Below, one piece after another: positions 23,860-27,525 of a stretch of DNA of 64,000 nt. Position numbers and translations under genes: made by a program. This DNA is from Argiope bruennichi (Eukaryota): assembly GCF_947563725.1 (NCBI RefSeq), contig NC_079163.1:54758922-54822921 (forward strand), read 5' to 3'. Position 1 is the stretch's first letter; every line of letters begins with the position of its first letter. Under the pieces are notes generated by a model. It saw only the letters and a list, made by a program, of their open reading frames with translations. It was not told the DNA's origin and ran no database searches.

Positions 23860-23941
23860 TGTTTGTTTAGTTATATTAACGTCCCGTTGTAAAGCAACAC
23901 TAAGGCTATTATGGGACGGACTACGTAATTTTGAACCGCAT
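23860..23941 (-). mobile_element. 5'-truncated copy of the same SINE (3' ~80 bp only), flanked by an AAAYTCTATGGG duplication.
   Basis: TTTGTTTGTTTAGTTATATTAACGTCCCGTTGTAAAGCAACACTAAGGCTATTATGGGACGGACTACGTAATTTTGAACC matches 25761-25850. CTATGGG repeats at both flanks. Confidence 0.6.
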
Positions 23942-24243
23942 AAATTCTATGGGTTTTTATATCCGAAATTATTTTATTTTTATGAAAATAAAAAAATCTG
24001 ATTTAGGATAAAGATGGCAAGATCATGGAAAATGTTGGCCATCATTACAACAATAAAACGATATTAGTCTTTTGACTATACCCTCTCAAATTTCAAAAAT
24101 AATATCAACATTACTTCAAAAATTATCATAAATTTTTATTTCAGTTAGTTATTTTTTTCTCTAGAAATTTTAGAAGTTTTCCCTGCAGTAAGTTTCAATA
24201 ACAAATAAATAAATAAGCACAAGATAATAAAAAAATAACATAC

Positions 24244-24430
24244 CTGCGGCAGCCAAAAGCGAACGAACTAACAGTGTGCATTACGGAGCAATATGTAACT
24301 TGAGATAGCATGTTGTCAGGACTTAATTTTTTCAGTTGAGAAATGGCTTCATGAAAAGACAAGAATGACCTTTTCTCTTTTTCGAGGGAAACTAATGACA
24401 GCAAGGTATGTAAATCTGCATCATCCAAGC
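24244..24430 (-). CDS. NWD1-like gene exon (GLDDADLHTLLSLVSLEKEKRSFLSFHEAISQLKKLSPDNMLSQVTYCSVMHTVSSFAFGCR).
   Basis: It has a CTCGCTAG acceptor and a CAG|GTATGT donor. The phase joins the previous exon (G+GC). Confidence 0.55.
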
Positions 24431-24576
24431 CTAGCGAGGAGAAAAAATTTCAAAATGAATATTAATAATCTTTACATTATATATGAGTATGCATAATAAT
24501 TTCAATTTATCTGAGTTCTAAAAATAATTTTAACTACATTTGTTCTCCTTTCCCAAGAAAACCATGTCTATCCATA

Positions 24577-24747
24577 ACACACACACACACACACACACAC
24601 ACACACACACACACACACACACACACACACACACACACACACACACACACACACACACACACACACACACACACACACACACACACACACACACACACAC
24701 ACACACACACACACACACACACACATATATATATACGTGTGTGTGTG
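24577..24747. repeat. (AC)~74 microsatellite followed by (TA)5 and (GT)6.
   Basis: The run can be read directly. Track ORFs translating it (CVCV… and THTH…) are artefacts. Confidence 0.95.
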
Positions 24748-25112
24748 CAGTGAATTTTGATAATATGAATAGGCATTAAATTATTTTGAAGCCTCTCCAA
24801 AATCAAATCTGTACATGACAAGAACAGATTTGATGAACTTAACTTATTTGTGCTATTAAATTTACTTAATACTTACCTTCTAATGTTTGATATTTAATTT
24901 GAAGACAATTTCTATATAGTAATTTACCACATCCATAGTGCCATTAAAAAAATTTCTCTACACCAAAAAGTCTATTTTATATTTTGTAATAATGCTTGTA
25001 TACGGATTTTAGAGCAAAATTTAGAGCCATTCCACTTAAGTAAATGTTACACAAGAGTTAATATTTAGCATAGATTTTTTTTCGACTAGAAACTTGATGA
25101 AGAATGTATATT

Positions 25113-25206
25113 ATATATATATATATATATATATATATATATATATATATATATATATATATATATATATATATATATATATATATATATATATATATAT
25201 ATATAT
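25113..25206. repeat. (TA)~47 microsatellite.
   Basis: The run can be read directly. Confidence 0.95.
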
Positions 25207-25756
25207 TCTAATGTCAGAAAAAAAACTCTTTTCAAAAAGTACTCACTATTTCAAATAGTTTTTATACATAAAATTTGGATGGGTAAAAGGTTACTTTTGT
25301 GACAACTGTAGCTCGGGAAAACATAAAAAAAAAATTATTTACGAGCGTAACAGTGCATGGTTTCAGATATCGGAAAATGCGCTTTCATTATTTTCTTCTA
25401 AGTAACTATCAATACATAAACTATTTTAATTACTTTAAAATTATAATATAATATAATAATATTATATTATATAATATTATATTTTTTTTGGTACTATAAA
25501 TTTAAATAGAAAACTTATTGAAATAATTTTTCGACAAGCCCCGTACCCTATTGTTTTCCCTCCCACATTTAATTGAATATTTGAAAAAATAATACTGATA
25601 TAGATTAAAAAAATTTTTCCAATGTAATGATCTATTGATACACTGACTGCATCAAAAAAGTTGTATTAAGAGATATTGATTTTGTACAACTTATGTATTT
25701 GAGATACTAAGAAAGAGCATTCTTTGTAGTAAAATGCTGTTTGATTAATCTCTGAA

Positions 25757-26035
25757 TTTTGGTTTGGTTTGGTTATATTAACGTCCTGTTTGAAGCAACA
25801 CTAGGCTATTTTGGGACGGACCTCGTAATTGTGAACCACGGTCAGATGACGAGGACGACACCTGAGCTGGCACCCTCCTCTCACACCACACCACACCAGC
25901 GGGAGGATGTTTGGTCATGACGGATTTAACGTGCAACAGACCCCCTTACACGACGGTTCTTCGGTGGAATTGGGACACGAACCTGAAACCCTCCGGTTCC
26001 GAAGCCGAGACCTTACCACCAGGCCACCACAGCGC
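25757..26035 (-). mobile_element. tRNA-derived SINE, full length (279 bp), flanked by a 15-bp target-site duplication TGATTAATCTCTGAA.
   Basis: On the minus strand the head reads GCGCTGTGGTGGCCTGGTGGTAAGGTCTCGGCTTCGGAACCGGAGGGTTTCAGGTTCGTGTCCC, with A-box-like TGGCCTGGTGG and B-box-like GGTTCGTGTCC. The tail is …TTAATATAACCAAACCAAACCAAAA. Identical 15-mers sit at 25742-25756 and 26036-26050. Confidence 0.7.
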
Positions 26036-27525
26036 TGATTAATCTCTGAAGGAGAATTTTAATGAATATGAAGTGGTAAATTGATATGCTTTATTTATGG
26101 GATTATCCCTGTTATTTTTTAATCATTGATAGAATAAGACAGTTTAAAAGCCCTAGGCAGGTCCTTCTTTTAATAAAGAGGTCAATTTAGGTACACAATA
26201 AAATATATTTTTAACTTAATCAACAGAGTGAGATTAATTTTAGGCTAAATATTTTTTTATTTTAGTAACTTTATAGAAATGTATACTTTTATTTATTATG
26301 ACTCATGGCTATGTGACATGTACGTCTGTGCACAATTTTATCCAAGCATTCGTTTTGTGTCTACAAATACTGTAATAACAAAGTAAACATATGAAACATA
26401 ACAAGTCTAATTCGTAGGAACCTAACGAATTATACTTGACAAATTTCTATTATTCTACAATTCATAGAATCTGTATTTTTTACAAATTTATTTATTAGGT
26501 AACAAGACTAAGAGCATCAGTTATTCGACCTATTTGTCCCCTCCAAAACCAGCCTCCTAGGTAGCTCTCTAGACAGAAATCTACCACTGTCTGAATCACT
26601 GTAGTTCTTCGCTAAATTATCTATAGCAGAATAAGTAATAGTAAAATCTTCAAATTACGGTTAATCGAATTACGGTTATTCTTTTATGATCAGCTTTAAG
26701 CACCTAGGAAACAAGATGGTCAGAGATTTACAGCATATTCAAAGCAATTAAATTATTAATAGAACTTTTATTAAACTGAGAGAAAACTGTTTTTAAACAA
26801 GCAGAGCACAGTGATAAGCCATTTTCAGATAACCAAAAAACAAAAATCGATAAAATAATTATCTCTGAAGAAATTGCAAACTTTACATTTTGCAATAATA
26901 ATAAAAATCATGCTTACAAGATTAAAAGTAAAATCAAAAGCGAAAAATATAAACAATAAAACTATCTTCAAAAGGAAATATTGGTACACATAAGGGGAGA
27001 AAGTCATTTCACTGGTTATATTCATACTACACAAAACTAAATCTCAACTCCATTAGCAGAAAATCCCAAATCGGATTATAAATCAACGGAAAACATGCAG
27101 AGATTTTAGGACGATATATTTACCCCATACACATCAAATATCCCAATTTAAAGTCGTGTGAGAGTTTAGAAGGCAGTTTATCAGTCAAGTAAAAGTTATT
27201 TAACCGTAATTTTGAATCATAATATCAGTCTCGAAAATGTATAACTTCTATTCGAATGTTATACTATCAAACTGAAAAGGCATGAATTCTTGCTCTTTAT
27301 CTTTCTCCCACAAAGGAAAATAAGTTAAGTGGATATTAACAGTCATTTATTTTCTTCAACTCTGATGAACTTATTACATCAGTAAAAAATAATTACCCCC
27401 CCCCCTTCTTTTACTTTTTAAATTTCTTTATATTTTTGAAAAAAAATGATAATTTTTTTTTTTTACTTATTTTTGAACATGATGAGAAAATTAAAGAAAA
27501 AAAGTATTAATTATATTAAGTATAC

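Follow-up and report, generated by a model that had tools for sequence, protein, structure and literature searches.

What are the two short sequences that interrupt introns of a gene in the spider Argiope bruennichi, and how did they get there? We addressed this question within a 64-kb stretch of DNA, hereafter the window. A preliminary description of the window had proposed a recently mobilized tRNA-derived SINE, present as one full copy and one 5'-truncated copy. We are highly confident that a tRNA-related SINE, that is, a non-autonomous retrotransposon that is short and non-coding, inserted at both sites; it belongs to a superfamily that is abundant in araneoid spiders. The proposed SINE identity is upheld by a Pol III head with A and B boxes, by target site duplications (TSDs), and by a tail of short repeats.

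The full-length copy lies on the minus strand at 25757..26035 (279 bp) and has a G+C content of 53%, versus 29% in the window. It is enclosed by two copies of TGATTAATCTCTGAA, a strandless feature found upstream of the SINE head at 26036..26050 and downstream of the tail at 25742..25756, and directly abutting the 279-bp unit on both sides. The two are identical at 15 of 15 positions, confirming the 15-bp TSD originally reported. This pair is among just three non-simple perfect direct repeats of at least 15 nt at a spacing of 60 to 700 bp in the 64-kb window. Another 15-nt direct repeat (29734/29969) was rejected as a lead, being an AT-rich chance match. The boundaries of the full copy coincide with the ends of its homology to copies from Araneus ventricosus (GCA_013235015.1) and Trichonephila clavipes (GCA_019973935.1). 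Because homology to the copies of other spiders ends exactly at these boundaries, no longer repeat encompasses the unit. All six reading frames contain stops. The window holds only two copies of the element, the full and the truncated one.

Four parts can be distinguished along the minus strand of the full copy: a tRNA-related head (element positions 1 to 75; 25961..26035), a central body (25840..25960), a 3' module (25774..25839), and a short-repeat tail (25757..25773). Alignments and nhmmer indicate that the body is conserved with a head-swapped family of T. clavipes and partly with a SINE of Parasteatoda. The tail reads AACC(AAACC)2AAAA, and is thus (AAACC)n-like, on the element's own strand and TTTTGGTTTGGTTTGGT on the plus strand. 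Overall, the full copy and the A. ventricosus-type consensus share 88% identity.

We defined an internal Pol III promoter as a box A (TRGCNNAGTGG) and a box B (GGTTCGANNCC) located approximately 30 to 45 nt apart and near the 5' end. Both occur in the head, 32 nt apart on the minus strand: box A, TGGCCTGGTGG (26016-26026), matches at 10 of 11 positions, and box B, GGTTCGTGTCC (25973-25983), at 9 of 11. A relaxed A/B pattern with a spacing of 28 to 40 nt has a single occurrence in the window, and none of 100 shuffles contained it. The boxes of the family consensus, TGGCCTAGTGG and GGTTCGAAACC, fit the canonical consensus exactly, and those of the window copy deviate from the family by A to G in box A and AA to TG in box B. 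Default ARAGORN detected no tRNA in the window, in four A. ventricosus loci (L001-L004), or in two family consensuses. The Rfam tRNA model, applied at its gathering threshold and at E values up to 10, had no match in the window and none in an A. ventricosus copy (L002). At 70 to 85% of its threshold, ARAGORN called a tRNA-like fold at positions 4 to 75 of the window copy and of the two family consensuses alike, together with spurious calls elsewhere in the consensus. Judged by eye, the anticodon-loop-like CTTCGGA suggests Arg(TCG) as the tRNA behind the head. The original label of 'tRNA-derived' is therefore retained in part, as a putative origin that rests on the A and B boxes and the sub-threshold ARAGORN calls; default ARAGORN and the Rfam model lend it no support.

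The 3' module has the pattern CGTCSC...GSGACGTTAATAT and is common to tRNA-headed and 5S-headed spider SINEs, occurring in families that differ in head (three types) and in tail repeat (also three). Patterns drawn from the module had 0 matches in two metagenome scans and one prokaryote-genome scan. RNAalifold placed a putative stem in this module, the arms of which lie on the minus strand at 25813-25818 (CGTCCC) and 25782-25787 (AGGACG) in the full copy, leaving a C:A mismatch at the innermost pair. Across the 6-bp stem, 87.7% of cells are paired, compared with 17 to 46% when the partner is slid, and one compensatory switch from C:G to G:C distinguishes families. Note that the stem is not thermodynamically exceptional, as its folding energy is no better than that of shuffled sequence.

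The second copy is 5'-truncated, as had been claimed, and keeps only the 3' 82 bp of the element (23858..23939, minus strand; about element positions 198 to 279, together with a (CAAA)n-like tail). It aligns to positions 199 to 277 of the full unit at 86% identity, and the CGTCCC/GGGACG stem remains intact in it. The TSD of about 12 bp previously assigned to it is present and proved to be longer, at 14 bp. ATAAACTCTATGGG lies downstream of the tail (23844..23857) and ATAAATTCTATGGG at the truncation point (23940..23953), both strandless, and the two agree at 13 of 14 positions with one mismatch (16 of 17 if the next TTT is counted).

Relatives of the element are numerous in other spiders. Full-length homologues in A. 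ventricosus have the same ends, carry TSDs of their own of 12 to 15 bp, and are 78 to 83% identical copy to copy. We found 13 matches in 71 kb of A. ventricosus, full copies among them, and 17 to 22 in 21.7 kb of T. clavipes; nhmmer returned 50 matches in approximately 330 kb (window plus spider loci) and 2 more in locus L010. At 2 copies per 64 kb, the window is far sparser than these relatives, which carry one copy per 1 to 5 kb. Flanking duplications are not peculiar to the window, since copies in the relatives sit between different flanks and have their own TSDs of 9 to 15 bp, variable in sequence, such as CTTGTCACAAGCTTG (15 bp; L002) and CCATCATAATYTAA (L004) in A. ventricosus and several in L006. 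Their 5' truncation points are spread over model positions 95 to 237 and the 3' end is always kept, as expected from incomplete reverse transcription. Being short, non-coding, and dispersed in many copies with unrelated flanks, and having TSDs of variable sequence and 5' truncations, the family resembles elements of the SINE2 type. Copies in the relatives are often annotated as 'hypothetical protein AVEN_*' (A. ventricosus) or 'TNCV_*' (T. clavipes), and 1395 predicted 'hypothetical proteins' match the antisense translation of the element, A. ventricosus being the source of nearly all of them.

The families differ in how their parts are combined. Copies from A. ventricosus share the head, body, 3' module, both ends, and TSD length of the window copy, but have a (TAAAC)n tail instead of (AAACC)n. 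The T. clavipes family has the same body and 3' module, but its tRNA-like head is a different one and its tail is (CAAT)n/(CACT)n. In Parasteatoda, a 5S-rRNA-headed family carries the same 3' module; an Rfam search of its 5S-like head gave no 5S match. Tails at the same position in the relatives are (TAAAC)n, (CAAT)n/(CACT)n, or (AAC)n.

Could these features be something other than SINE insertions? A MITE or another non-retrotransposed repeat would likewise be short and non-coding, with direct repeats at its flanks. However, the full copy lacks terminal inverted repeats (its first 30 nt match the reverse complement of its last 30 at 7 of 30 positions in register and 14 at the best offset), the TSDs are 12 to 15 bp and vary in sequence and length, and the structure is polar, running from a Pol III head to a repeat tail and being truncated at the 5' end only. 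We consider such an origin extremely improbable. The same holds for a tRNA gene, whether functional or a plain pseudogene, with chance repeats at its flanks. Its A and B boxes would stand at tRNA spacing, as they do here, but neither ARAGORN nor Rfam detects a tRNA, and the head is followed by a 200-bp body that is conserved in hundreds of copies; we give this explanation next to no credence. Less remote, although still improbable, is that the 82-bp fragment is a severely 5'-truncated partner LINE or a member of another SINE family with the same 3' module. Since at least three families with different heads have this module, the fragment could belong elsewhere; it is nearer to the A. ventricosus-type consensus (89% identity) than to the full copy in the same window (86%), and its tail repeat is (CAAA)n/TAAAC rather than (AAACC)n. 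Against this, its match to the T. clavipes type is poorer (78%) than that to the A. ventricosus-type family, the relatives commonly contain SINE copies truncated at many different points, and no LINE carrying the 3' module was found in the window or in approximately 270 kb of spider loci.

The age of the full copy is more contentious. The claim that it was recently mobilized is not supported. Both boxes are off the family consensus, and of 204 positions on which two sister-family consensuses agree, the copy departs from them at 24 (11.8%, 5 CpG transitions included). It may instead be an old, decayed insertion whose perfect 15-bp repeat survived by chance, a possibility that we take seriously even though we lean slightly against it. 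The mutated box A, the mutated box B, and the 3' stem mismatch would all fit such decay, as would the contrast with the youngest T. clavipes copies, which differ at just 0.5 to 1%. However, at 10% divergence per site a 15-bp pair stays identical approximately 4% of the time (0.81^15), and the observed/expected CpG ratio of the full copy is still 0.86. Because an intact pair would be this improbable, some of the differences may be subfamily-diagnostic of the species' master copy. The perfect TSD only argues against great age.

As insertions of a tRNA-related SINE, the two copies can be compared with known systems. In stringent LINE/SINE pairs, such as UnaSINE1/UnaL2 of eel and MIR/L2, the 3' end of the SINE copies that of the LINE. 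The spider element resembles stringent-type SINEs in its Pol III head, unique body, conserved 3' module, possible stem-loop, TSDs, and 5' truncation, and also in its tail, which in all spider families is made of short tandem repeats and not poly(A). Unlike in those pairs, a shared LINE 3' end was not found. Searches of the window and 10 loci with blastn and with full and tail-only nhmmer models returned SINE copies alone, although this sample is far too small to exclude a LINE with a matching 3' end. A weak tail-only match in L001 led nowhere as a LINE lead. Another tRNA-derived SINE of chelicerates, Ruka, occurs in ixodid ticks, often within genes or close to them. We liken it to the spider element by description alone and claim no homology, ticks being very distant from spiders.

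Conservation of a body and 3' module across tRNA- and 5S-type heads is the hallmark of conserved-domain superfamilies (Deu, Nin-DC, and CORE), and the spider families share it. Of these, Nin-DC is reported from a tick, Ixodes, and CORE from Limulus (PMC5804259). RepeatMasker annotation of Trichonephila antipodiana lists 44,262 copies of tRNA-Deu (the largest SINE class), 28,198 of MIR, and 19,575 of tRNA-Core (PMC7976613), and the abundance that we observe in Trichonephila agrees with these counts. We rejected a resemblance to the CORE domain that had been noted by eye: in local alignments with a MIR consensus, admittedly a weak test, the two family consensuses from position 76 to the end gave z = -0.4 and 0.6 against shuffles. 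The literature searched, in full text and including strings of the element's sequence and peptides, contained no named description of the family.

A LINE encoded nearby had been put forward for comparison with the 3' end of the SINE. The element at about 8.2 to 17.2 kb is a decayed LINE into which an LTR retrotransposon has been interposed, and this remnant has no similarity to the SINE tail. The idea that the 8.2-16.8 kb element is purely an LTR retrotransposon was discarded, as three-frame translation and Pfam searches of the joined flanks show a split LINE endonuclease. Judging from sequence features, the SINE was probably mobilized by a LINE. As neither the window nor approximately 270 kb of spider loci yielded a LINE whose 3' end matches, this dependence is inferred from the TSDs, the truncation, and the type of tail only. 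Under the mechanism that we envisage, a master copy would be transcribed by RNA polymerase III from its internal boxes, and the reverse transcriptase of a partner LINE would recognize the 3' module of the RNA, possibly via the short stem-loop and then the tandem-repeat tail, in a partnership of the 'stringent' type. The LINE endonuclease would nick the target and the RNA would be copied in place (target-primed reverse transcription). Staggered cleavage of the second strand would make the 14- to 15-bp duplications, and early termination of reverse transcription would yield the 5'-truncated copy.

Both copies are intronic and oriented as the host gene, on the minus strand, in agreement with the first account of the locus. 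With P0243 and P0244 as queries, tblastn places a host-gene exon upstream of the full copy at 27494..27721; tblastn also places an exon between the two copies at 24243..24431 and the next one downstream of the truncated copy at 19272..19412, all on the minus strand. The gene itself had been called NWD1-like. However, its closest homologues have a TROVE domain and TEP1-specific propellers, and the gene is therefore TEP1-like. The window yielded no TROVE exons of this gene. Nothing suggests that the two SINE copies have a function in these introns.

A broader interpretation is that the body and 3' module represent a conserved domain of araneoid spider SINEs that has not been described before. 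Such a domain would be common to families with tRNA(Arg-like) heads (A. bruennichi, Araneus), a different tRNA head (Trichonephila), and a 5S-rRNA head (Parasteatoda); it would have been joined to new Pol III heads by repeated recombination and maintained by one long-lived LINE lineage that recognizes the small stem-loop. We regard this scenario as speculative and unlikely.

The two insertions carry little biological weight in themselves, because SINE insertions in introns are routine. They could nevertheless be used as presence/absence markers in phylogenetic or population studies, where the empty site would be a single TGATTAATCTCTGAA or ATAAAYTCTATGGG. Published annotations of spiders contain well over a thousand bogus 'hypothetical proteins' that are translations of this family, and a proper consensus would therefore clean up spider gene sets. 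Furthermore, the occurrence of head-swapped families with one 3' module offers a convenient way to track down the active partner LINE of spiders.

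The full copy of the short interspersed element (SINE; 279 bp, positions 25757-26035, minus strand) is bracketed by an identical 15-bp target-site duplication (TSD), TGATTAATCTCTGAA, at 25742-25756 and 26036-26050 (15/15 positions). An 82-bp fragment (23858-23939, minus strand), 86% identical to unit positions 199-277, lies between ATAAACTCTATGGG and ATAAATTCTATGGG (23844-23857 and 23940-23953). The preliminary description had both copies right, in coordinates and in sequence. Non-simple perfect direct repeats of at least 15 nt at a spacing of 60 to 700 bp number only three in the window, and one is the TSD pair of the full copy, which adjoins the homology boundaries exactly. 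We found no further copies of the unit in these 64 kb. The unit has a G+C content of 53% (window, 29%), stops in all six reading frames, and no terminal inverted repeats. Its functional strand is the minus strand, on which it begins GCGCTGTGGTGGCCTGGTGGTAAGG... and finishes ...GACGTTAATATAACCAAACCAAACCAAAA. Two microsatellites, (CA)n of ~75 units and (TA)n of ~50 units, lie between the two copies (24577-24725 and 25107-25210); the (CA)n tract shares an intron, between exons at 27494 and 24431, with the full copy.

Relatives of the element are abundant in other spiders. We found them by searching a protein database with the antisense-strand translation of the element and then examining the encoding contigs. 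The first search returned six Araneus ventricosus 'hypothetical proteins', and a profile of these six matched at least 1395 predicted proteins at E ≤ 0.001 (P0121-P0241 among them), nearly all of them annotated in A. ventricosus as 'hypothetical protein AVEN_*', with a few from Trichonephila clavipes. These spurious proteins carry the motif ...GYFGTDLVILNHGQMTRTTPELAP..., and the contigs encoding them contain full-length DNA homologues at 78 to 83% identity. Aligned copies begin alike, with GRGGCCGCGGTGGCCTAGTGG, and end alike, in GACGTTAATATAAC and a (TAAAC)n tail. Each has unrelated flanks and a TSD of its own (in A. ventricosus locus L002, for instance, CTTGTCACAAGCTTG, 15 bp and perfect), and truncated copies begin at varied model positions (95-237) with the 3' end always kept. 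The boundaries are therefore real, and the unit is not part of a longer repeat. There were 13 matches in 71 kb of A. ventricosus, two decayed fragments in a Larinioides sample, and none in small samples of Nephila pilipes (29 kb) and Stegodyphus (30 kb). Density is extreme for the head-swapped sister family of T. clavipes (17 to 22 matches in the 21.7 kb of loci L006 and L009, the higher count from nhmmer), in which several copies are nested or back to back.

The head of the element contains a Pol III promoter. Box A (TGGCCTGGTGG, unit positions 10-20) is one mismatch from the consensus, box B (GGTTCGTGTCC, positions 53-63) is two mismatches away, and the two are at tRNA spacing; a relaxed A/B pattern had a single match in the window, and 100 shuffles gave none. 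Neither ARAGORN at default settings nor the Rfam tRNA model (E up to 10, on a 400-nt slice) found a tRNA in the window copy or in the better-preserved copy in L002, and default ARAGORN found none in the four A. ventricosus loci (L001-L004) or the consensus sequences. With its threshold lowered to 70 to 85%, a setting that also yields spurious calls, ARAGORN returned a tRNA-like fold of 72 nt; in the window copy, as in both family consensuses, this fold spans positions 4-75 exactly. A loop-like CTTCGGA, as read from the sequence, suggests an Arg(TCG) ancestor. Because the promoter is clear and the cloverleaf is only sub-threshold, the head, previously called tRNA-derived, is best termed 'tRNA-related'. 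A further A/B-box match in A. ventricosus, TGGCTGAGTGGCTAAGG...GGTTCGAACCC (L002, 15655-15709, plus strand), lies outside this family and could belong to a tRNA pseudogene or to some other tRNA-derived element.

By analogy with established LINE/SINE pairs, several features together point to mobilisation of a Pol III transcript by a LINE through target-primed reverse transcription: the Pol III head, the conservation of the 3' module, the tail of short repeats in place of poly(A), TSDs of 12 to 15 bp, and truncation at the 5' end only. On this model, the LINE would recognise the 3' module, as in stringent-type pairs. Transcripts of the full copy could terminate at a TTTT run (25731-25734) 22 nt downstream of its tail. 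The LINE singled out earlier for comparison with the SINE tail, at 8.2-16.8 kb, does exist (~8200-17200, plus strand), in decayed form and split by an LTR retrotransposon (10258-15334). Its APE-type endonuclease domain (Exo_endo_phos_2, 28 bits) was detected only after we joined the sequence on either side of that insertion. No resemblance to the SINE tail was seen in this LINE, or elsewhere in the window and the retrieved spider loci apart from SINE copies. The nested element has 330-bp LTRs (10258-10589 and 14993-15334; 86 to 89% identical) and encodes a gag zinc knuckle, retroviral protease, reverse transcriptase, and integrase with its zinc finger; it and the LINE occupy a single intron of the host gene. 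Host-gene introns also hold a Tc1/Sleeping-Beauty-like transposase remnant following the LINE (~17210-18490, minus strand; HTH_SB, HTH_Tnp_Tc3_2) and a frameshifted mariner-like one (~35950-36680, minus strand; Transposase_1).

Related families combine shared modules with different heads and tails. Body and 3' module are common to the window type and the T. clavipes family (77% identity between consensuses). The latter begins with another head (TAGCCGAGTGG...GGTTCGAGCCC) and ends in a (CAAT)n/(CACT)n tail. In Parasteatoda tepidariorum, a ~330-bp repeat (L008, ~50000-55100; copies ending at 50271, 52552, and 53157 on the plus strand and 54849 on the minus strand) ends in this 3' module and an (AAC)n tail. 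Its head scored z = 15 against shuffles when compared with a Drosophila 5S rRNA sequence, and had no match in Rfam; the repeat would be a 5S-headed relative. Another Parasteatoda SINE, tRNA-headed (L008, 37250-37612 and 36529-36622, both minus strand), has just the beginning of the body (CCGAAGA...TGCACTTTAAATCTGTCG...) in common with the window's element; its 3' half differs. Within the 3' module, RNAalifold predicts a 6-bp stem with 87.7% of cells paired (17 to 46% with the partner slid); the Araneus type would form it from CGTCCC/GGGACG, the Trichonephila and Parasteatoda types from CGTCGC/GCGACG. Conservation as structure is only suggestive, since the compensatory C:G to G:C switch is a single evolutionary event and the stem is no more stable than shuffled sequence.

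The preliminary description regarded the insertions as recent, which our data neither establish nor exclude. Identity of the full copy to the Araneus-type consensus is 88%. The Araneus-type and Trichonephila-type consensuses coincide at 204 alignment positions, and the full copy departs from them at 24 of these (11.8%), with five CpG transitions and six gaps among the differences. Box A, box B, and the innermost pair of the stem all carry mutations. By the same comparison, the youngest T. clavipes copies differ at 0.5 to 1%. Against great age stand the perfect 15-bp TSD, whose survival at 10% per-site divergence we calculate at ~4%, and a CpG observed/expected ratio still at 0.86; some of the differences are thus probably diagnostic of this species' master copy. 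With its mismatched TSD and another tail repeat, the fragment probably belongs to a different or older subfamily; conceivably, its source is instead a LINE or a second family carrying the 3' module.

Both copies are intronic and in the orientation of their host gene, as previously proposed. A search with exon 27769-28080 retrieved homologues of 2010 and 2612 amino acids, both with TROVE, DUF4062, WD40, and TEP1-specific propeller domains. Mapping these by tblastn placed minus-strand exons at 46779-46633, 43256-43095, 42276-42040, 40966-40736, 39077-38955, 34527-34096, 33308-33180, 31065-30892, 28080-27769, 27721-27494, 24431-24243, 19412-19272, 7809-7468, 6417-6241, 4945-4841, and 532-395. The full copy thus lies between 27494 and 24431, and the fragment between 24243 and 19412. 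Rather than NWD1-like, the gene (395-46779) is more likely an orthologue of TEP1 (telomerase/vault protein component 1); we found no TROVE exons within the window. A chaoptin gene (53686-59098, plus strand) lies beside or nested within it, its long exon (53686-56361) 79% identical to N. pilipes chaoptin and 65% to that of Stegodyphus. These values indicate that the DNA is from a spider absent from the protein database searched. The opposite-strand pair recurs in both genera: TROVE and DUF4062-WD40 models flank chaoptin on either side in N. pilipes, and a single 2010-amino acid model spans it in Stegodyphus dumicola. Just downstream of chaoptin is a perfect 36-nt direct repeat (59398-59433 and 59475-59510; 77-nt spacing).

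Spider genome papers give SINEs as RepeatMasker classes only (in T. antipodiana, 44,262 tRNA-Deu, 28,198 MIR, and 19,575 tRNA-Core copies; PMC7976613), and, among HCD-SINEs, Nin-DC is reported from Ixodes and CORE from Limulus (PMC5804259). The body showed no similarity to a MIR/CORE consensus. In the literature searched, we found neither a named description of this family nor its sequence strings; it is very likely already in repeat libraries. The SINE is unexceptional, and its kind is well understood. Its head-swapped sister family in T. clavipes looks recently active, judging from some copies that differ by ≤1% from their consensus. The 1395 or more 'proteins' read from the antisense strand of these SINEs amount to misannotation on a large scale in the published gene sets of spiders.
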